Below are positions 46,520 through 56,360 of a stretch of DNA of 64,000 bases, piece by piece. This DNA comes from Chloroflexota bacterium. Lineage in GTDB: Bacteria > Chloroflexota > Limnocylindria > Limnocylindrales > CSP1-4. Under the pieces are notes generated by a model that was not told the origin of the DNA, did no database searches, and was given only the letters and a program-made list of their open reading frames with translations. How positions within the stretch are numbered: position 1 is the first letter of the stretch; each line of letters begins with the position of its first letter. The stretch lies in NCBI GenBank assembly GCA_005880805.1, contig VBFZ01000026.1:481-64480 (forward strand), read 5' to 3'. The translations under genes were made by a program, and so were the position numbers.

Positions 46520-49408
46520 TCAGCCGACTGTCGCGGGGGCTCGCGTCTCCTCCCGGATCTGCTCCTCGAACACGGGCAGGCTGAAGCCGAACTCGGAGCC
46601 GCCCTCAGGCCGCGTGCGAGCCCAGATCCGGCCTCCCATCGCCTCGGTCAGGATTCGGCAGACGTACAGGCCGATCCCGGCTCCGGGCTGCGAGCGGGCA
46701 GTGGACGGTGACCGGTAGAACAGCTCGAACAGCTGCTGCGGATCCTCCTCGCTGAGCCCGGGACCCTGGTCCAGCACCCGGAAGAGGACCTGGTCACCGG
46801 ACATTTCGGCTTCGACGATCACTTCCGCGGCTGCGTCGGGTCCGTACTTGACGGCGTTGCCAACGAGGTTGCGGACGATCTGCTCGACGTAGGTCCGGTC
46901 ACCGGCGATCGGCGGCAGGTCTCGCGCGACGTGCTCGACGAACGTGACGCCCGTGCTCGCCCGCCGCTCCGAGTCGAGAATCGTCCGCACGACGTGCTGG
47001 AGGAGCACGGGCTCCGGCTCGAGCGAAAGGCGACCCGCCTGCGCCCGGCTCAGGACGAGCAGGTCCTCGACGAGCCGGTACAGCCGCTCCGATTCGGCCT
47101 CGACGTCGCCCAGCAGCCCCTCGACCTCGGGGCTGGCCTCCGGTCGCCTCCGCCGGAGGATCTTCGTCACGCCGAAGATCGTGGTGACAGGCGTGCGCAA
47201 CTCGTGCGACAGGATGCCCATGAATGCCTCCTGGGCCAGCTGCGCCTGGCGCTGCTCGGTGACGTCCCGCACGAGCATGACAGTCGAGCCCGACGTTTCG
47301 CCCTCGCCGGAGGGGACCGCCCGGTAGGCCGTCGCCTCCAGCCAGCGGAGCGGCTGCTCGGTGCGAATCTCCACCGGCCCTGAAGCCTTGCCAAGCTCCG
47401 GAAGCTCCCCTTCGAACGGGCCGAGCAGCCGGGCGAGGTCCTCGTAGCGCGCGATCGGCTCGTCAAGAAGCTCGACGACGGCCTGATTCGTCAGGACCAC
47501 ATCGCCTGCGTCATTGCACACGAGAACCGCCTCGCGCATCGACTCGATGATCGCCCTGAGCTCCGCGCTCCTGGCGCGCTCCGACGTGGCGAGGCGGTAC
47601 AGACGGCTCTGCACTTCGATGCGCTCGCTGATGTCCCGGGCGGAGACGATGATGCGCTGCTCGCCATCCGGCAGGGTGACGCACTGCATGAAGGCTTCGA
47701 CCGGGATGTCGACGCCGTCCTTGCGGCGATGCGTCGTCGGGTAGGTGCGGGCGGCTCGGCGACCGGCGACGAGCGGCGCGAGGAGCTCGCGGTAGGAAGC
47801 CTCGTCGAACTTCGGCTTGATCGCCAGTGCGGGCATGTCGATCAGTTCGGCCCGCGTGTACCCCAGTTGAGCGAGCGCGCCGTCGTTCGCGTAGCGGATT
47901 CGGAGGGTCTCGGGGTCGATCAGGATCACCGCGTCGAGGGAGGCATCGACGGTCGCGGTGAACTGCGTCGCTTCGCGAAGCAGGCTGCCGACCTGGACGG
48001 CGACGCCGAGGCGACGGCCGAGGTCGGAGGCGAACAACACGTCCGCCGGACCGAACCGATGGGCTTCGCTCGCCCCGAACGCGAGCACACCCGTGCCGCC
48101 GCGGGCACCCTCGACGGGCACGGGAGCGAGCACGCCCGATCGCGAGCCGAAGCGCGCGAGAACGTTGGCAGCCGCCGGTTCCACGGCCAGCTCGAGCGAG
48201 TCGATCAGCAGGGCACGCCGTGGCGGCTCCAGGCGGTCGACGCGGCTCACCGACTCAGGCCCGGCGGAGCCCTCCTGGTCGCGCCGGGCTGCAGCCCGAT
48301 ATGTCCCGTGCGGCTCGGACCACTCGATCAGCGCCCAGTCCGCGAATTCCTCGGTGAGAAGTCGCGCGAGTCGCGGGAGAGCCGCCTGGTAGTCGAAGCC
48401 GCCAGCCAGCACCTCGGAGGCCTGGACCAGCAGCCCGAGGCGAAGCTCGGATTTCTTGCGGTCCTCGAAGAGGACTGCACGCGCGAACCCTTGTGCAGAC
48501 GCGTCCACGATCGTCGTGAGGTACTCGAGGTTGTCGCGCGTGAACCGGCTTCGATCGTTGAACGCCAGGGTCAGGACGCCGATGGGCCGATCACCGAGGA
48601 TCAGCGGGATACAAGCGAGCGCGCGGATGTCCCCGAGCGCAGCCTGGAGCTCTGCAGGAAAGGCGTTGCGGATGCTGGCCGGCGACTCGAGCAGGATGGC
48701 TCGCCCCGAGCGGAAGGCGACCGCCGGAGGGAGGCTTCCATCGAGAGGCACGGCGCGGAGCGCCTCGACGAGAGGCCCTGGCAGTCCTCCACTGGGCGTG
48801 GATCCGAGAGTGTTCGTTTCCGGCCGGTGGATGGACACGACGCCTGCCGAGGCGCCGAAGATCGATTCAGAGACCCCGAGGATCGTCACCGCCGTGTCGT
48901 CGAAGCTCTCGGCGCGGCTCAGCTCGATTGCCAGGCGCTGGAGGCCCTCGGCCCGACCGCGGAGCCGATCCGAATCCCGCCGGGCTGTGGCGAGGGCCGA
49001 GCTCAAGGCGCTGATGAGGATCCCGACGATGACGAACAGGCCGGCCTCCAGGATCGCGGTGGGATTGCGCACTGCCGCGTGGCCGAGCGGCAAGACGAAC
49101 ACGAGCGCCTCGCCCGCCAGGCAGAAGAGGGTCGCACCGAGACCGCCCTGCAGACCGCCGAACCAGGCGGCAAGGGCGACCGCAACCACGTACGGGAGGA
49201 AACCGACGTCCGTGCCCGCCGCGGCATTGGCCGCTGCCTTCAGGCCAATGGCCAGGAATGCGAGGAGCGCGGCCCACGGCAGCGGGTGATCCGAAGCCTG
49301 CGCCTGGGAGGCGACAATCGCGCGCCAGAGGCTCACGGGCAGGCGGACCGTCACACGCTCCCGGGCGGTCACTGCCGATAGCTGTTGGTCGGGCCGTTCC
49401 ACGTGCAC
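46520..49408 (-). CDS. Multidomain sensor histidine kinase (DUF4118-type membrane region, GAF and PAS domains, HisKA + HATPase_c)
   Basis: H-box FMGILSHELRTPVTTI, N/G boxes NLVGNAVKYGP...DQGPGL...GAGIGL; no adjacent response regulator. Confidence 0.85.
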   Translation of the reverse strand: MHVERPDQQLSAVTARERVTVRLPVSLWRAIVASQAQASDHPLPWAALLAFLAIGLKAAANAAAGTDVGFLPYVVAVALAAWFGGLQGGLGATLFCLAGEALVFVLPLGHAAVRNPTAILEAGLFVIVGILISALSSALATARRDSDRLRGRAEGLQRLAIELSRAESFDDTAVTILGVSESIFGASAGVVSIHRPETNTLGSTPSGGLPGPLVEALRAVPLDGSLPPAVAFRSGRAILLESPASIRNAFPAELQAALGDIRALACIPLILGDRPIGVLTLAFNDRSRFTRDNLEYLTTIVDASAQGFARAVLFEDRKKSELRLGLLVQASEVLAGGFDYQAALPRLARLLTEEFADWALIEWSEPHGTYRAAARRDQEGSAGPESVSRVDRLEPPRRALLIDSLELAVEPAAANVLARFGSRSGVLAPVPVEGARGGTGVLAFGASEAHRFGPADVLFASDLGRRLGVAVQVGSLLREATQFTATVDASLDAVILIDPETLRIRYANDGALAQLGYTRAELIDMPALAIKPKFDEASYRELLAPLVAGRRAARTYPTTHRRKDGVDIPVEAFMQCVTLPDGEQRIIVSARDISERIEVQSRLYRLATSERARSAELRAIIESMREAVLVCNDAGDVVLTNQAVVELLDEPIARYEDLARLLGPFEGELPELGKASGPVEIRTEQPLRWLEATAYRAVPSGEGETSGSTVMLVRDVTEQRQAQLAQEAFMGILSHELRTPVTTIFGVTKILRRRRPEASPEVEGLLGDVEAESERLYRLVEDLLVLSRAQAGRLSLEPEPVLLQHVVRTILDSERRASTGVTFVEHVARDLPPIAGDRTYVEQIVRNLVGNAVKYGPDAAAEVIVEAEMSGDQVLFRVLDQGPGLSEEDPQQLFELFYRSPSTARSQPGAGIGLYVCRILTEAMGGRIWARTRPEGGSEFGFSLPVFEEQIREETRAPATVG

Positions 49409-49523: not shown

Positions 49524-50855
49524 TCAGCTCGCGGCGGGCGCCGAAACGGGTGACTCCTCGTTGCCGCCCGGCCGCTCCGGCGCCGGCGCCCCGAGCGCCA
49601 GGTAGGACTCGATCGCCGCTTCGAGCCCGACGTCGCGACCTGCCCGCTCGGACATGAGCCACTTGTGCTCGAGGAGGTCGCAGTAGGCCTGCACGATGTC
49701 CCCGTCAGGGCCGACGACCTCGGCCAGGCGCTGCGTCGTCGGTCGGAAGACGTCCCGCAGCCAGCGTTCGGGCCCGGTAGTGCCCAGCGGTCGACCCTCG
49801 AACCACTCCAGCCAGGCCGCGTACTCATGGAGGTCGTTCAGCAGGAGACGCGCCTGGTTCTCCATGGCGACGATGCCGGTCTTCCGCTCGAGGTGCCTGG
49901 CGTGGAAGAGGCGCGTGGTGACCGCAAGCGTCAGGCGCACGAGTCCGTCCGGCGCACCGGGCTCCAGTGCGACCTCGTCCACCGAGAAGCCGAGATCGTT
50001 GAGCTTGCGAATCCGCTTCTCGATCGCGTGCCGGTCGTGCGGCCGGAGCTCGGGCGTCTCGTGGAGCTTCTCCCAGAGCAGTTCGTAGCGCTCGCGAACG
50101 GACTCGGCCGCCTCGATGGCCGCGTCCAGGTCCTCGAGGCGTCCCTGGTAGGCCGCCAGATCGGCGAGTCCGAACGCGACGTTCTCGACCAGGATGTCCA
50201 GGTCGTTTCGGCGCTGGCCGTCCGACAGGCTCGGGTGGACCTCGCTGGTTTCGGCGTCGACCAGGTAGGCCTGGATCTTGTCGCCGTCACGACGGAAGAG
50301 GGTGTTCGCAAGCGAGCAATCGCCCCAGTAGACCCCGGCCCGATGGAGATCGATCAGCAGCCAGGCCATCGCGTCAAGCAGGCGGTCGCGGTAGGAGCCG
50401 GGTCCAAGCGGGAAGCGCATGAGGAGACGGCGGTACTGCAGCGAGTTGGCGAGGTACTCCGTGACCAGGATGGCCGTATCGCGATCCGGCGCCTCGGCCA
50501 GGCCGATGGTCGAGACTGCCGGCAGGCCCAGCTCCTCCAGGTGTCGCAGCGCCGCGAATTCGCGCTGCGCCGTCTCGAGCGGCTCCTCCTTCAGGGCAAA
50601 GAGGCGGCCGTCGGTCGCCAGGAACCGAACGAGGTGTCGCGACGGCCCGACCTGCATCTCCCGGAAGCCGTCCTCGTGCCACCGCGCCAGCGGCAGCTCC
50701 CAGGACAGGCCGAGCAGCTCGCTTGCGCCCTGGCGCAAACGCAGGCGCGGGAATCTCGCGGTTGCCGAAGATTCGGCAGCGGAGCCGTTGCCGTCGGTGT
50801 CCAGGATCTGGAGCTCGGCGAGGCCTTCGACCTCTTCGACTCTGGTGGTGGTCAC
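49524..50855 (-). CDS. DUF4032-like protein with protein-kinase-like fold
   Basis: Kinase-like catalytic segment LHRAGVYWGDCSLANTLF...YLVDAETSE; ~440 aa. Confidence 0.45.
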   Translation of the reverse strand: MTTTRVEEVEGLAELQILDTDGNGSAAESSATARFPRLRLRQGASELLGLSWELPLARWHEDGFREMQVGPSRHLVRFLATDGRLFALKEEPLETAQREFAALRHLEELGLPAVSTIGLAEAPDRDTAILVTEYLANSLQYRRLLMRFPLGPGSYRDRLLDAMAWLLIDLHRAGVYWGDCSLANTLFRRDGDKIQAYLVDAETSEVHPSLSDGQRRNDLDILVENVAFGLADLAAYQGRLEDLDAAIEAAESVRERYELLWEKLHETPELRPHDRHAIEKRIRKLNDLGFSVDEVALEPGAPDGLVRLTLAVTTRLFHARHLERKTGIVAMENQARLLLNDLHEYAAWLEWFEGRPLGTTGPERWLRDVFRPTTQRLAEVVGPDGDIVQAYCDLLEHKWLMSERAGRDVGLEAAIESYLALGAPAPERPGGNEESPVSAPAAS

Positions 50856-51123: not shown

Positions 51124-51200
51124 TGGCGCGCCCGGAGGGATTCGAACCCCCGACCCTGTGGTCCGAAGCCACATGCTCTGGTCCACTGAGCTACGGGCGC
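51124..51200 (-). tRNA. tRNA-Arg (anticodon TCG), 77 nt including encoded CCA
   Basis: Reverse complement GCGCCCGTAGCTCAGTGGACCAGAGCATGTGGCTTCGGACCACAGGGTCGGGGGTTCGAATCCCTCCGGGCGCGCCA folds as a cloverleaf: 7-bp acceptor stem, D-arm GCTC/GAGC, anticodon stem TGTGG/CCACA with loop CTTCGGA, T-arm GGGGG-TTCGAAT-CCCTC. Confidence 0.8.
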
Positions 51201-51525: not shown

Positions 51526-51727
51526 CCCCAATCCCGTCGAGAAGCATTTGACACCCCTCCTGTCGTCTGCGCGACACCGCGGGCGTATAAGGAAGAAGGG
51601 TTGATCCACATCCAGTAGGCCCCTCGCTGGGCCGCGATTACGCCGTTCGGATGATGTCTGCGAGCCTTGCTTGGACGATCCTGATCGCCCCTGCGAATCC
51701 AGCGCCCAGACGGATCGTCAGCCGCCA

Positions 51728-51988
51728 ATGCAAGCCACGGAGCTGCTGCTCCACACCTTTCCCAGCGCCGATACCGCGTTTCGGTTCGCGGTCGCCGGCG
51801 CATTCGACGTCGTGGCCGAGGAAGAGGGCGTCCTCGTCAGCGAACTGCGTGGCGATCGCGAGGTCCAGGGAAGGCTGCAGCGCATCATCCGCGAGCGCTA
51901 TCCGCGGTCGTACGTCCGTTCGCGCGACCCCTGGACCCAGGCGAAGGGTGACGCGCGCTCGATTTGGTACGTCTTCCGAGGCGAGTAA
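51728..51988 (+). CDS. Hypothetical protein (86 aa from MQATELLLHTF...; ORF open from 51671)
   Basis: ORF only; no motif recognised. Confidence 0.3.
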   Translation: MQATELLLHTFPSADTAFRFAVAGAFDVVAEEEGVLVSELRGDREVQGRLQRIIRERYPRSYVRSRDPWTQAKGDARSIWYVFRGE

Positions 51989-52043: not shown

Positions 52044-53363
52044 TCAGCTGGCGCTGCGGGTACGGCTGACGGCCAGCGCCTCGCGCGATAGCTCGTAGGC
52101 CCGGGCGTGGTCGCCTTCCTCGGCGACGATGTCGGCCCACTCACCGAGCAGGGACTCGAGCTGGATGCGTCGATCCTGCTGGCGCGCCCGCTCCGCAGCC
52201 TGTTGGAGGATCTCGATCGCACCCGCGCGGTCGCCCTGCTGCCTGCGGGCGCGGGCCAGCGTCAGCGCCGCGTCCGCGAACGCCTTCTGATTCCCGCTGG
52301 CCTCGGCCAGTTGCAGCGCCTCCGAGGCAAGCGCGGCGGCTCCGTCGCGGTCGCCAGCTCTGAGGGCAATCTGCGCCTCGGTATCTGCCACGTGTGCCAG
52401 CCAGCGCTCGCTGCCTAGCCGCTCGAACTCTCGTCGCGCGACAGCGGCCTGCTCGCGGGCAAGGTCGAGGCTGCCACGCTTCAGGTACACCATCGCCAGC
52501 GAGTTCTCGACCGAAGCCGCTTCCAGCTGGGCGTCGCTCGCCTTGAAGAGGGCGGCCGCCTGGAGGCCCAGGGTGAGCGCACCTTCGAAGTCGCCGAGCT
52601 CCTGGTACGAAAGCGCGAGCGTGAAGTCGAACGTCGCCCGGCGCCGATCATCGAACTCGGCGGAGATTCCGCGGGCCTCTTCGAGATATGAGAGGGCGAC
52701 GTCTCCATGGATGTCGCGCGACTCGATGGCCGCCAGCGCGATCAGCACCCGCACCTTGAAGTCCGGCTCCAGCGCCAGGCCGTCCTTTAGCTGCTCGAGG
52801 AGACCGGTCAGGATGCGGCGCGCTTCGAGCGAGTTCTCCAGGAGGTAGAACCCATTCGACTGCCAGTAGGCAGCACGGGCGGCGTCCTGGACGTTTCCGG
52901 CGGCCGTGAAGAGCTCGACCGCTTCGGTCGCCAGCCTGACCGCCTCGCCACCGCGCTCGAGGCGGCACAGGGCTTCCGCGCGACCCTTGAGGAAGTGGGC
53001 CTTGATCGCGGGGCTCGCGGTTCCGGTTGACAGGAGGTCCCCGTAGGCGTCGGCGGCGCGTTGCCAGTCGCCGCTGGCGAGCATCAGGTCGGCCTCGAGT
53101 CGGCTCCAGCGGCTGACGTCCTCGCCCATGAGGGTCGTGGCCGGGATGCCCAGTCGCCCGGCGAGGAAATTCAGGGCGGCCATGGAGGGCTTGATGTGCC
53201 CGTTCTCGAGGGCACTCACGTAGGCCTTGGTGTACCTGCCCTCAGCGAGCTGTGCCTGCGTAAGTCCGCGCTGGAGCCGCTCCGCTCTCAGGCGACCGCC
53301 GATTCGTTGAGCGAGTGGCCGGTCTGCTTCGACGTGAGATCGCGCGGTTCGGGTCAGCTGCAT
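52044..53363 (-). CDS. Transcriptional regulator with N-terminal XRE-type HTH and C-terminal TPR-repeat domain (RNPP-like architecture)
   Basis: HTH LRAERLQRGLTQAQLAEGRYTKAYVSALENG, then ~8 TPR-like helical repeats; ATG 53363. Confidence 0.75.
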   Translation of the reverse strand: MQLTRTARSHVEADRPLAQRIGGRLRAERLQRGLTQAQLAEGRYTKAYVSALENGHIKPSMAALNFLAGRLGIPATTLMGEDVSRWSRLEADLMLASGDWQRAADAYGDLLSTGTASPAIKAHFLKGRAEALCRLERGGEAVRLATEAVELFTAAGNVQDAARAAYWQSNGFYLLENSLEARRILTGLLEQLKDGLALEPDFKVRVLIALAAIESRDIHGDVALSYLEEARGISAEFDDRRRATFDFTLALSYQELGDFEGALTLGLQAAALFKASDAQLEAASVENSLAMVYLKRGSLDLAREQAAVARREFERLGSERWLAHVADTEAQIALRAGDRDGAAALASEALQLAEASGNQKAFADAALTLARARRQQGDRAGAIEILQQAAERARQQDRRIQLESLLGEWADIVAEEGDHARAYELSREALAVSRTRSAS

Positions 53364-53643
53364 GACCCGCAGGATAACGCGTCGGTCTACTGGGTTGTAA
53401 CTCGTCGAGCAGCTGACCGCACCTGATCCCGAGGCGGTCCGTGAGCAGCAGCAGGCTGGCAAGCGAGGGAACGGTCCGCCCACTCTCGACCGAGGACACG
53501 AACGCGCGGGTGAGCGGGTAGCCCAGGTGCGCCTGGGTCAGGCCGCGTGCAACGCGCTCTTTTCGTAGCTCCGCCCCCAGCGCCCGCGCAAAGTCGGACT
53601 CCGGGCCGGCGCTGCGTTGTTTAGCAATAGTTGACTCACGCAT
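53242..53643 (-). CDS. Small XRE-family HTH protein (C-terminal tail low-complexity, overlaps next gene)
   Basis: MRESTIAKQRSAGPESDFARALGAELRKERVARGLTQAHLGYPLTRAFVSSVESG...; 120-bp overlap with the HTH-TPR gene start. Confidence 0.5.
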   Translation of the reverse strand: MRESTIAKQRSAGPESDFARALGAELRKERVARGLTQAHLGYPLTRAFVSSVESGRTVPSLASLLLLTDRLGIRCGQLLDELQPSRPTRYPAGHAADPNRAISRRSRPATRSTNRRSPESGAAPARTYAGTAR

Positions 53644-53701
53644 GCTTGCGAGGTTAGCATCCGCCAGTCCCGCACTCAAGGAAAGGGAAGGAGGAATTTC
53701 A

Positions 53702-53821
53702 ATGGAGCTGTTTCGTCGGATTCGCCTGGTCCTGGTGGCTTCGCTCACCGCGGTCGCCCTGACCGCCGCGGCGATCGGCACCGCCTTCGCAGGGGATGGC
53801 GGGCCCCCGTTCCCGCACTGA
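53702..53821 (+). CDS. 39-aa secreted pro-peptide candidate (MELFRRIRLVLVASLTAVALTAAAIGTAFA|GDGGPPFPH)
   Basis: ATG 8 nt after AAGGGAAGGAGG; n-h-c signal-peptide architecture with an AFA cleavage site leaving a 9-aa C-terminal peptide; divergent from the XRE gene and 102 bp upstream of the sensor kinase. Confidence 0.45.
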   Translation: MELFRRIRLVLVASLTAVALTAAAIGTAFAGDGGPPFPH

Positions 53822-53923
53822 CCTCGGCGGCTCCCGTACAGTCCCGGGCGGGACCGCCGACGCGGCCCGCCCGTTTCATTGCCCGCTTCCGGCCGCGCTC
53901 CCTGGTCGGCGTAGCATGACCTG

Positions 53924-55606
53924 ATGGACGTCCTCCGCCGCCCTCGATTCGATCGCGGTCGGGGTCGTCGAGCGCTCGAGGCTGCTGCGGTCGCCGCCGC
54001 GACGCTGGCGGTCAGCACCGTGGTCGCAGCCGCACTCGAATCGGGTGCAGGCGTCGCTGATGCATCGTCGGTCTACCTCCTCGCGGTGGTGGTCATGGCC
54101 TCCCGCTACGGCCTCTGGCCGGCGGTCGCGACGTCGCTCCTTTCGGTGCTCGTGTACGACCTCCTCTTCACCGCGCCCCGTTTTGCGTTGGCCGTCGCCG
54201 ATCCGCAGGAGTGGCTGAGCCTCCTCCTGTTCCTCGTGGTCGCCGTCGTTATCGCACGCCTCGCGGCCCTGCAGGCCGACCGCGCGGCTGACGCGACGCG
54301 CCGTGCCGACGAGGCGCGCGCACTCTTCGGCGTCAGCCGGTCGCTCGCGACGGCGGCGTCCGTACAGGTCGCAGCCCAGGACATCGTCCAGCGTCTGCAG
54401 GTCGGTGCGGGCATGGACAGCGTGTGGATCGCCCTCGGAAACAACCCCGCCAGCGAGCGTCTCCTAGCCGGGGCGGTCGCCGGCCGGAGTCGACCCCCCG
54501 CCGCGGTTTACTGGACGTTGCATCGGGGAGCACAGGACGCAGCCGACCAGTGGGTCCGTACTCACGCCGGCCGGCAGCCGGGCCGCGAGGCCGACGCCTC
54601 GCGTGCCGAGGTCGCCCCTGGCTCCGACACGGGCGATATGTTCCGCTTGGGAATCGAGGCGGAGGACCAGCGGCTCGGGTCGCTCTGGGCGGTGCGCGGA
54701 CACCAGCAGGGCGTGCCCGGGCCGGACGAGACGCGGCTGCTGTCGCTGGCCGCCGACCAGGTCGCGCTCGCACTCCGCCGCGAGCAGCTGGCATTGGAAG
54801 CGACAAAGGCGGAAGTCGCGCGCCGAAGCGACACGCTCAAGAGCGCGCTGCTCGACTCCGTGTCGCACGGGTTCCGGACGCCGCTCGCCACGATTCGTGC
54901 GCTTGCCGGGCAGCTGCTGGACGAAGAGACGGCACCGTCCGCCGAGGCGACGCGGGAGACGGCGGGCGCGATCGACGACGAGGCGGCACGCCTGAGTGAC
55001 GTCGTGCGGAACGTGCTGGATCTCAGCCGTATCGAAGGCAACGCGCTTCGCGCGGAGCTCGAAGTTCACGAGCTTGCGGAGCTCGTCCGTGGAGCCGTCC
55101 GCCGCGAGAAGGCGATCGTCGAGCCGAAGCGGGTCGAGGTCGACCTGCCGGACGAGCTGCCGCCAGTCATGGTCGACGCGATCTTTCTCGACCAGGCACT
55201 GATGAACGTGCTCGAGAATGCCGCCGCCTATGCGGGCCCCGGTGCCGCAATCCGCGTCACCGCGAGCGTCGCGGACGACGGGTTCGTGGACTTGCTCGTC
55301 GAGGACGGCGGACCGGGGGTGCCCGACGAGGACCTCGACCGGCTGTTCGAGAAGTTCTATCGCAGGCCGACGGTGCGGTCCGCGCGCGCCGGGCTGGGCA
55401 TTGGGTTGAGCGTCGCGCGTGGCCTGGTGGAGGCGATCGGTGGCCAGTTGTCGGCCGAGCGCAGCGGGCTCGGCGGGCTGGCGATCAGGTTCCGGCTGCC
55501 TCGGGCGCGACTGACGGAGAGGTCGATCGACTCGCACGAGGAGCCGACGCCTGTGGGCGTCGCACAGGGGGAGGCGGGACCACCGCGCCACCCATCGTCA
55601 GCTTGA
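53924..55606 (+). CDS. Sensor histidine kinase, KdpD C-terminal-half type (DUF4118 membrane domain + GAF + HisKA + HATPase_c), lacking the KdpD N-terminal domain
   Basis: DUF4118-like TM block (LLAVVVMASRYGLWPAVATSLLSVLVYDLLFTAP), H-box LLDSVSHGFRTPLATI, ATPase motifs NVLENAAAYAGPG...DGGPGVP...GLGIGL. Confidence 0.85.
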   Translation: MDVLRRPRFDRGRGRRALEAAAVAAATLAVSTVVAAALESGAGVADASSVYLLAVVVMASRYGLWPAVATSLLSVLVYDLLFTAPRFALAVADPQEWLSLLLFLVVAVVIARLAALQADRAADATRRADEARALFGVSRSLATAASVQVAAQDIVQRLQVGAGMDSVWIALGNNPASERLLAGAVAGRSRPPAAVYWTLHRGAQDAADQWVRTHAGRQPGREADASRAEVAPGSDTGDMFRLGIEAEDQRLGSLWAVRGHQQGVPGPDETRLLSLAADQVALALRREQLALEATKAEVARRSDTLKSALLDSVSHGFRTPLATIRALAGQLLDEETAPSAEATRETAGAIDDEAARLSDVVRNVLDLSRIEGNALRAELEVHELAELVRGAVRREKAIVEPKRVEVDLPDELPPVMVDAIFLDQALMNVLENAAAYAGPGAAIRVTASVADDGFVDLLVEDGGPGVPDEDLDRLFEKFYRRPTVRSARAGLGIGLSVARGLVEAIGGQLSAERSGLGGLAIRFRLPRARLTERSIDSHEEPTPVGVAQGEAGPPRHPSSA

Positions 55607-55631: not shown

Positions 55632-56360
55632 ATGACCGGCGTGGCGGCCCCGGCCGCTCACCTGCTGTTCGTCGAGGACGACGACGCCACGCGCGCCCCG
55701 ATCGCGGCGAACCTGGCGGCGCACGGCTACCGCGTCGTCGAAGCGGCGACCGCGGGCGAGGCTACCAGGGCGTGGGACGCGCAGCGGCCCGACCTGATCC
55801 TGCTTGACCTGGGCCTGCCCGACCGCGATGGACTGACGATCGTGCGGCGCGTCCGGCGCGAAGCCACGACCCCGATCCTGATCCTGTCGGCGCGCGGCGA
55901 GGAGCACGATCGGGTGACGGCCCTCGAGCAGGGCGCGGACGACTACCTGACGAAGCCGTTCGGGTTGGCCGAGCTGCGCGCACGAATCACGGCGCTGCTC
56001 CGGCGCGCGGGTGGTGGAGCGGTCGACGGAGCCGGTCAGATGACGATCGGGCCGGTGACCATGGACGTCGCGCGCCGCGAGGTGCACGTGAACGGCCGGC
56101 TGGTCGAACTGACGCCGCGCGAGCACGAACTGTTGAAGGTCCTGATGTCACGCCCCGGAACGGTCGTGACGAGGGGGCGTCTCCTGCGGGCCGTCTGGGG
56201 CACCGGCTACTCCGAGGAGTCGCACTACCTGCATGTCTACGTCAGCCGGCTTCGGAGAAAGCTCGCGGAAGCCGACCCATCCGGCCGGGCGACGGACCTC
56301 TTTGTGGCCGAGCCAGGGGTGGGCTATCGGGTGAGGGACGATCCGCCGGATGACGCCTGA
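55632..56360 (+). CDS. OmpR-family response regulator (KdpE-like)
   Basis: Receiver (LLFVEDDDATRA...DLILLDLGLPDRDG...KPF) plus winged-helix (LTPREHELLKVL...YLHVYVSRLRRKL). Confidence 0.9.
   Translation: MTGVAAPAAHLLFVEDDDATRAPIAANLAAHGYRVVEAATAGEATRAWDAQRPDLILLDLGLPDRDGLTIVRRVRREATTPILILSARGEEHDRVTALEQGADDYLTKPFGLAELRARITALLRRAGGGAVDGAGQMTIGPVTMDVARREVHVNGRLVELTPREHELLKVLMSRPGTVVTRGRLLRAVWGTGYSEESHYLHVYVSRLRRKLAEADPSGRATDLFVAEPGVGYRVRDDPPDDA

Follow-up and report, generated by a model that had tools for sequence, protein, structure and literature searches.

The 64,000-nucleotide stretch of Chloroflexota DNA analyzed here (hereafter the window; positions 481 to 64,480 of contig VBFZ01000026.1, assembly GCA_005880805.1) contains a 39-codon gene for a putative exported pro-peptide. 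The gene diverges from a small gene of the XRE helix-turn-helix (HTH) family and from a gene for a 439-aa regulator that combines an HTH with tetratricopeptide repeats (TPRs). Comparison of related sequences suggests, with moderate confidence, that the three genes form a peptide-signaling cassette that is core to the class Candidatus Limnocylindria, pairing an exported pro-peptide with a cytoplasmic TPR receptor in the manner of the RRNPP systems. The locus is thus a strong candidate for peptide cell-to-cell signaling of a type described so far only in Firmicutes. The lineage is Chloroflexota, class Candidatus Limnocylindria, an uncultured group of soil and freshwater; a first-pass annotation made from the letters of the window had placed the genes in a high-GC Gram-positive, which is the wrong taxonomy.

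RESULTS

The peptide gene accompanies an HTH–TPR gene throughout the class

Relatives of the HTH–TPR protein were collected by scanning one genome per GTDB species, and 80 related loci were kept of 131 receptor relatives. All but two of the 80 come from metagenome-assembled genomes (MAGs) labeled Chloroflexi, Chloroflexota, Anaerolineaceae or Limnocylindrales, the exceptions being labeled Gaiellaceae and Eisenbacteria. More than 1000 receptor relatives were found at E <= 1e-5, and those that carry a name are Candidatus Limnocylindrales or Chloroflexota. When we scanned the regions upstream of the XRE or TPR genes, 73 of the 80 loci were found to carry a divergent open reading frame (ORF) of the same design with a Shine–Dalgarno (SD)-like motif; relaxed inspection adds L058, L071 and L072 to the peptide-bearing loci, which total 77 of the 80. 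One locus, L037, stops at a contig edge. The first-pass annotation had proposed conservation of the small ORF and its tail beside HTH–TPR genes as a check on its reading, and the equivalent ORF in 77 of 80 loci supplies it. In L038, L076 and L078 the receptor gene is present and no peptide ORF was found upstream of it. These three may be orphan receptors, and L078 retains a degenerate ATACTTGAC promoter remnant.

To remove ascertainment bias, we also made look-ups that start from the peptide. Each of seven database peptides with different tails, present at 12 places, adjoins a divergent HTH+TPR gene of 408–446 aa (7/7), and the HTH–TPR start lies 170–400 nt upstream of the peptide start. The HTH–TPR gene of L217 is split into two gene calls. 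In the window, the start codons of the peptide and receptor genes are 338 nt apart with the small XRE gene between them. The small XRE gene is missing from approximately 22 loci, in which the peptide and receptor genes adjoin each other directly in divergent orientation, 139–338 nt apart; the receptor is therefore the constant partner of the peptide gene. Judged by this distribution, the small XRE protein was added to the pair in particular lineages. Where public annotation overlooks the XRE gene, the peptide and receptor genes likewise appear side by side.

Besides the XRE and HTH–TPR genes, we found no gene conserved beside the peptide gene across the clades of the related loci. We rejected the possibility that the peptide is the precursor of a ribosomally synthesized and post-translationally modified peptide, because no modifying enzyme is conserved in the neighborhood. 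A leader peptide or attenuator was rejected on the grounds of the Sec-like sequence, the divergence from the regulators and the variable downstream genes. The types of peptide tail described below track the receptor clades.

The 39-codon ORF is conserved as a coding sequence

The first-pass annotation had reported the ORF with its GGAGG ribosome-binding site, the divergent small XRE gene and the gene for the 439-aa HTH–TPR protein; all of these are present at the positions it gave, the latter two with Pfam hits. Its description of the ORF as unannotated holds only in part, since the exact 39-aa peptide has been gene-called on nine metagenome contigs. The exact receptor also occurs on soil metagenome contigs. 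GC content by codon position in the ORF (0.72/0.57/0.82) resembles that of its neighbors, for example the downstream kinase gene (0.78/0.52/0.84). Among the 73 orthologous ORFs listed, 72 have an SD-like motif (GGAG, GAGG, AGGA, AAGG or similar) no more than 18 nt before the start, and most encode 35–46 aa, with a few reaching 70 aa. Differences between pro-peptide orthologs of the same length number 678, 398 and 1161 at the first, second and third codon positions, so that the third position dominates. The closest relative, L014, whose receptor is 75% identical to that of the window, encodes MHGTFLRLRAFVMASLMALALTALAIAPVLGGDGGPPFPK at the same position; the N-terminus has diverged and the tail is kept. 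This comparative evidence shows the 39-codon ORF to be a genuine gene that is subject to purifying selection.

High-GC genomes are rich in spurious ORFs, and 96 ORFs of at least 30 aa are listed for this region, as might be expected if the ORF had arisen by chance in a high-GC intergenic region and represented no gene. That explanation is refuted by conservation of the ORF and we give it almost no credence. The ORF, SD motif, promoter and peptide motif are kept in 77 genomes with receptors 47–77% identical to that of the window, the substitutions fall mostly at third positions and a hidden Markov model (HMM) of the peptide retrieves 219 clusters.

Those clusters were obtained at E <= 1e-3 among 1.84 billion cluster representatives; the best E value is 8e-16 and nearly all are 34–42 aa in length. 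Where a longer ORF has been called, the HMM match reaches the C-terminus or stops one or two residues short of it; two of the 150 clusters listed are exceptions. A protein search with a 40-aa query version of the peptide returned two near-identical proteins only, and a profile of 53 peptides returned ∼100 gene-called members among 5.8 billion proteins, with E values down to 4e-13. These members have no Pfam domain and, apart from two, are unnamed or 'hypothetical'. The JGI names of P0127 ('heme/copper-type cytochrome/quinol oxidase subunit 4') and P0129 ('uncharacterized membrane protein') look like artefacts of hydrophobic similarity. A stringent pattern that combines an SD motif, hydrophobicity, AxA and the tail ending was scanned against both strands of the same loci (895 kb) and gave 54 matches, of which 53 are at the expected sites and one is the L058 copy, 1 kb upstream of the L058 receptor gene; within the 64-kb window it matches once. 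When metagenome contigs were scanned at the DNA level, the pattern A-D-x-G-G-P-[FY]-P-x-stop gave at least 120 chance matches, with no real precursor among the matches listed.

A fixed cleavage signature and a constrained tail

The precursors share a basic n-region, a hydrophobic core, an [AV]-x-A site and a short tail that ends in [FYW]-P-[KRH]. The median net charge of the n-region is +3, and ∼22 residues separate the last basic residue from the predicted site. In the genome precursors, position -3 is V or A in 69 of 72 and position -1 is A in the same number; the -1 Ala is the sole invariant column in an alignment of 94 database members. Exactly nine residues follow the site in 60 of 74 genome precursors and in 202 of 246 database members. 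The 9-mer has the consensus [DG]-G-G-G-[TG]-P-[FY]-P-[HRK], and minor classes of tail consist of 8-mers ending in YP or FP and of 6-mers with the sequence (Q/E)TPYPH. The ratio of nonsynonymous to synonymous codon differences is 175/208 in the tail compared with 719/497 in the signal region, indicating that the tail is the more tightly constrained of the two. The most conserved parts of the peptide are the predicted cleavage site and the nine residues that follow it.

Four precursors (L052, L057, L060 and L072) carry the nine-residue unit twice, with a spacer of 6–12 residues between the copies, as in DAGGAPWPK-VQATIQ-DAGSAPWPH; L057 and L060 are two contigs of the same MAG. In L045, PWPR is kept at the end of a 23-residue extension. 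Propeptides that contain multiple peptides are known from RRNPPA systems (PMC9765709). Taken together, the AxA site, the fixed spacing and the constrained and duplicated tail point to a defined C-terminal peptide that would be released by cleavage.

The small XRE gene starts within the putative peptide promoter

A single sigma-70-like match, TTGACT-18-TAGCAT, is found between positions 53300 and 54000 (0.0 expected), and it lies upstream of the peptide gene. Alignment of the peptide upstream regions on the -35 element gives the consensus tGTTTAgcAATAsTTGAC-N17/18-TAgCAT in 72 of 74, with ∼2 bits per position over GTTTA..AATA.TTGAC. The promoter 17-mer is unique in the window, and each locus has one copy. 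The consensus is also present in loci without an XRE gene, and its conservation is therefore not a by-product of XRE coding. We infer that the conserved element serves as a promoter or operator. A search of the promoter region for inverted repeats that might form an operator gave only GCATGC at the XRE start.

Over 65 aa, the small XRE protein and the HTH of the TPR protein are 46% identical, which makes the two paralogs. In the window, the XRE ORF runs on without a stop after the HTH until position 53242 and overlaps the start of the TPR gene by 122 nt in another frame, a feature that the first-pass annotation had overlooked; the overlapping tail (53242-53391, minus strand) has a non-coding-like GC content by codon position and looks unconstrained. 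An XRE gene lies upstream of the TPR gene in ∼55 of the 80 loci, where the ORFs mostly overlap by 17–314 nt, and in a few relatives the XRE ORF ends just before the TPR start. The overlap suggests that the two genes are co-transcribed and that their translation is coupled.

The XRE start codon (53641-53643) falls in the spacer that separates the -35 and -10 elements of the peptide gene. The minus-strand sequence TAACCT (the complement of 53651-53656) is positioned 7 nt before the XRE ATG and overlaps the peptide -10 element by 2 nt, and the TTGACnnnCGCATG context around the XRE start and the peptide promoter is conserved. From this geometry we infer that the XRE/receptor transcript is leaderless and that the two promoters interfere with or exclude one another.

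Structure and relationships of the HTH–TPR protein

In an AlphaFold2 model of the receptor candidate (predicted local distance difference test, pLDDT, 89; predicted template modeling score, pTM, 0.74), an N-terminal HTH is followed by a continuous array of paired helices that extends to the C-terminus. Relatives at 47–77% identity occur throughout the Limnocylindria, and those listed are 406–465 aa in length. A Foldseek comparison with the PDB places the TPR domains of LGN/Pins first (E = 1e-9); next come PlcR (E = 2e-7), a number of Rap proteins and NprR (TM 0.63, normalized by target length). When a profile was compared with PDB sequences, the best bacterial match was the HTH of PlcR (E = 2.4e-8, HTH region only); RapH, RapJ, NprR, ComR and Rgg matched weakly, and kinesin light chain matched better. 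The architecture of the protein therefore matches that of the RRNPP receptors, and the comparisons are inconclusive as to shared descent, because generic TPR proteins score equally well or better.

With NCBIfam and PADLOC models, the peptide, XRE and receptor proteins all fall below the cut-off, giving only weak NsdA-like, HipB-like and CapH-like matches. No full-length homolog of the receptor was found in the plasmid or phage collections searched, and an origin from a mobile element was rejected for this reason.

Genes downstream of the peptide gene and in the wider neighborhood

The coordinates of the module and of the genes that follow it are listed in Table 1.

Table 1. Features of the module and of the adjoining kinase and regulator genes (window coordinates)
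Feature	Position	Strand	Basis or detail
HTH(XRE)+TPR regulator, 439 aa, candidate cytoplasmic peptide receptor	52044..53363	-	Pfam HTH_3 E = 1.5e-8, TPR_12 E = 3.7e-11
Small XRE-family HTH gene	53242..53643	-	HTH core 53392-53643, 84 aa; Pfam HTH_31/HTH_3
Putative peptide-gene promoter	53619..53660	+	GTTTAGCAATAG 53619-53630, -35 TTGACT 53631-53636, 18-nt spacer, -10 TAGCAT 53655-53660
SD sequence GGAGG	53690..53694	+	7 nt before the pro-peptide ATG; read from sequence
Pro-peptide gene	53702..53821	+	39 codons plus stop; translation MELFRRIRLVLVASLTAVALTAAAIGTAFAGDGGPPFPH; GC by codon position
Predicted Sec-type signal peptide, residues 1-30, ending A-F-A	53702-53791	+	MELFRRIRLVLVASLTAVALTAAAIGTAFA, sequence-predicted
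Predicted mature 9-mer GDGGPPFPH, residues 31-39	53792-53818	+	sequence-predicted
DUF4118-HisKA-HATPase sensor kinase	53924..55606	+	Pfam; first ATG 102 nt after peptide stop
OmpR/KdpE-like response regulator	55632..56360	+	Pfam/NCBIfam

The best NCBIfam matches of the kinase and regulator are KdpD and KdpE, far below the cut-off. The first-pass annotation had noted that the peptide gene lies 102 bp upstream of this pair, a spacing that we find as described, and had suggested that the peptide could equally be sensed by the kinase. The two readings do not stand on an equal footing: the pair adjoins the module in 2 of 78 peptide-bearing loci, namely the window and its closest relative L014, and elsewhere the gene downstream of the peptide gene is unrelated, being non-homologous between clades and convergent in about half of the loci. 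The link to the kinase is incidental because the adjacency is confined to those two loci, and we rejected a conserved function of the peptide as a kinase ligand. Folding of the RNA of the 108 nt from the peptide stop to the kinase start gave z = -0.6 relative to shuffled sequences, a value that decides neither for nor against a terminator. Read-through from the peptide gene into the kinase gene is possible.

Six nucleotides separate a TAGCAT from the first ATG of the kinase gene at 53924 (53912-53926). The XRE gene has the same -10-to-start geometry, a hint that this genome may often use leaderless transcripts. In public gene calls the kinase starts later, giving proteins of 528 or 503 aa. In several other loci (L035, L036, L041, L045, L059, L082 and relatives), co-directional downstream genes often have signaling or nucleotide-turnover functions, examples being DUF4118 or GAF histidine kinases, HisKA-HATPase, PAS-EAL-TfoX_C and REC-HD-GYP proteins and an RNase T/Rv2179c-like exonuclease. 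Such genes may be read-through targets with a cyclic di-GMP (c-di-GMP) theme.

Just beyond the module, the window encodes another DUF4118 kinase, which is 962 aa long and includes GAF and PAS domains (46520-49408, minus strand), and a Kdo/WaaP-like kinase with DUF4032 (49524-50855, minus strand). Both are syntenic in near-identical contigs, and the DUF4032 gene also keeps its synteny in L014. A tRNA-Arg gene (anticodon TCG; 51124-51200, minus strand) is located between the DUF4032/Kdo-like kinase gene and a 105-aa ORF (51671-51988) that follows the receptor gene.

DISCUSSION

A model for the module

We propose that the pre-peptide would be exported by Sec and cut after A-F-A by signal peptidase I (SPase I), releasing the 9-mer GDGGPPFPH, for which standard residue masses give a monoisotopic mass of 879.387 Da ([M+H]+ 880.395). 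The 9-mer would build up outside the cell, re-enter it and bind to the TPR domain of the cytoplasmic regulator. The bound regulator may then act differently on the peptide promoter, through its conserved GTTTAGCAATA/-35 element, and probably on further targets. The small XRE protein, made from what is probably a leaderless mRNA whose -10 element overlaps that of the peptide gene, would compete with the HTH–TPR regulator at the same operator or occupy it together with that protein. The core of the first-pass reading, that an exported pro-peptide is genetically coupled to an RNPP-like HTH–TPR regulator, is thus supported by the comparative evidence: the linkage in both directions (77/80 and 7/7), the conserved site and tail, and the doubled tails.

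Comparison with known peptide-signaling systems

The RRNPP signature consists of a small pro-peptide with a Sec signal and an adjacent receptor of 250–500 aa with TPRs (Bernard et al. 2023, PMC10075063). The Limnocylindria module has a pro-peptide of 39 aa in the window and a family mode of 40 aa, within the 10–100 aa of the signature, and a receptor of 439 aa with TPRs and an N-terminal HTH. Sequence proxies (the charge of the n-region, the hydrophobic core behind it, and the residues at -3 and -1) are consistent with export by Sec and cleavage by SPase I. The module departs from the described systems in its host: RRNPPA is regarded as a Firmicutes/Bacillota family that extends to the mobile elements of these bacteria (PMC10075063, PMC9765709, PMC12700828), and the related loci are nearly all from Chloroflexota. 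A large RRNPP survey covered Firmicutes and viruses only (PMC10075063), and in the literature searched we found no RRNPP-type system outside Bacillota, including Chloroflexi/Limnocylindria.

The nearest counterparts are PapR/PlcR and NprX/NprR of the Bacillus cereus group. In these systems, as here, the receptor has an N-terminal XRE-type HTH and a C-terminal TPR array and an adjacent small gene encodes a pro-peptide, which is exported by Sec there and predicted to be so here; PapR yields its active peptide from the C-terminal end of the pro-peptide, as we predict for the Limnocylindria peptide. The systems differ in that theirs are accessory modules of Bacillota with the peptide gene downstream of the receptor gene, whereas this one is a core, class-wide module of Chloroflexota with a divergent, upstream peptide gene and, in most lineages, an extra HTH-only paralog between the peptide and receptor genes. 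Homology to PlcR and NprR is unproven because the TPR similarity is no better than that to eukaryotic TPR proteins.

Divergent peptide genes are likewise found in SHP/Rgg of streptococci and PrgQ/PrgX of enterococcal pCF10, where the promoters are closely spaced or overlapping. The paralogs Rgg2 and Rgg3 act on one promoter, a situation analogous to that of the XRE and HTH–TPR pair. These systems differ from the Limnocylindria module in that their receptors have Rgg or PrgX folds and are confined to Bacillota. In addition, SHP and PrgQ are exported by PptAB and are not recognized as Sec substrates (PMC10075063), whereas the peptide described here has an n-h-c signal with AxA. Phr/Rap resembles the module in peptide design; Rap, however, has no HTH, and both phr and aimP (of AimP/AimR) are downstream of the receptor gene. 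Phr/Rap and AimP/AimR are also often carried on mobile elements, in contrast to the lack of plasmid or phage homologs here. RRNPP systems are in general fast-evolving and often mobile, while the Limnocylindria module is core and vertically inherited, its peptide motif is conserved across the whole class, and its HTH-only paralog is written across the peptide promoter. ComCDE and Agr are similar to the arrangement in the window in that a small peptide gene precedes genes for a histidine kinase and a response regulator. They differ in that the kinase linkage is not conserved here, the signal is of the Sec type and the interval from the peptide gene to the kinase gene contains no gene dedicated to processing or export.

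Alternative explanations

Several observations weigh against the signaling interpretation. The receptor is no closer to RRNPP proteins than to generic (eukaryotic) TPR proteins. The module is single-copy, vertically inherited and moderately diversified, a pattern that suits a housekeeping role no less than quorum sensing, and the co-divergence of tails and receptors is also expected under plain vertical descent. The 22-residue hydrophobic stretch could serve as a membrane anchor. No oligopeptide permease is present among the ten window proteins sampled, and no genome-wide search for one was made.

Two of these observations, the distribution and the RRNPP-specific homology that was not found in sequence and structure comparisons with the PDB, would be accommodated if the module were simply a regulator–target pair, in which an exported or membrane-anchored micro-protein has a role of its own (for example as an accessory of the envelope or of a membrane complex), the XRE and HTH–TPR proteins control its transcription and the TPRs sense something else. 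Divergent pairs of a regulator and its target are the commonest bacterial gene arrangement, and the hydrophobic stretch has the length that a helix needs to cross the membrane. However, the conserved part of the peptide is not the hydrophobic segment but the nine-residue tail at a fixed distance from the invariant AxA, doubling of the tail unit in four precursors is hard to explain for a membrane anchor, and the characterized bacterial HTH–TPR proteins among the structure matches, PlcR and NprR, are all peptide receptors. We therefore consider this explanation unlikely. A housekeeping-like distribution with little diversification of the peptide could also reflect an export sensor, whose TPRs bind the C-terminal P-[FYW]-P-[KRH]-COOH of precursor that still awaits export and thereby report Sec capacity or envelope stress instead of cell density; this scheme needs no re-import, in keeping with the permease result above. 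It is common for TPR domains to grip peptides by their C-termini, an example being the carboxylate clamp in which Hop holds EEVD, and the conserved motif is at or near the extreme C-terminus across the family clusters. What makes such a sensor improbable is that the invariant -1 Ala and the nine-residue spacing point to a defined cleavage product, and that the internal unit of the two-copy precursors ends in K or R (P-M in L072) ahead of the spacer, which suggests proteolytic release outside the cell. Detection of the exported peptide outside the cell by the DUF4118 kinase, as in systems of the ComCDE or Agr type, appears very unlikely. In its favor, the genes for the peptide, the kinase and the regulator all point the same way in the window and L014, no significant terminator structure was found between the first two, and the position just downstream is occupied in other clades by another kinase, a PAS-EAL protein or a REC-HD-GYP protein. 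Against this, besides the linkage in only two loci and the unrelated, often convergent downstream genes of the others, the kinase gene has its own TAGCAT-N6-ATG start context and the peptide has a Sec-type signal, with no double-glycine leader or AgrD-type cyclization site seen by eye.

Implications

Under the pheromone–receptor interpretation, the module would work like the RRNPP systems, and it may or may not belong to that family by descent: either generic XRE and TPR elements were combined independently, or RRNPP-type signaling has a much older origin, which the module would reveal. The broader proposition is that peptide pheromone signaling through cytoplasmic receptors is not confined to Bacillota, and that the Limnocylindria, an abundant class of soil and freshwater, carry a vertically inherited core module of an exported 9-mer, an HTH–TPR receptor and an HTH-only paralog whose start codon lies in the pheromone promoter; we regard the case for it as evenly balanced. 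Because a peptide consensus, a receptor and a promoter have been delineated, in vitro tests of the hypothesis are feasible and need no culture of the organisms. If it is true, the phylogenetic range of peptide communication through TPR receptors would be widened beyond Bacillota, and the module would offer the first handle on cell–cell signaling in the Limnocylindria, a lineage known almost only from metagenomes.

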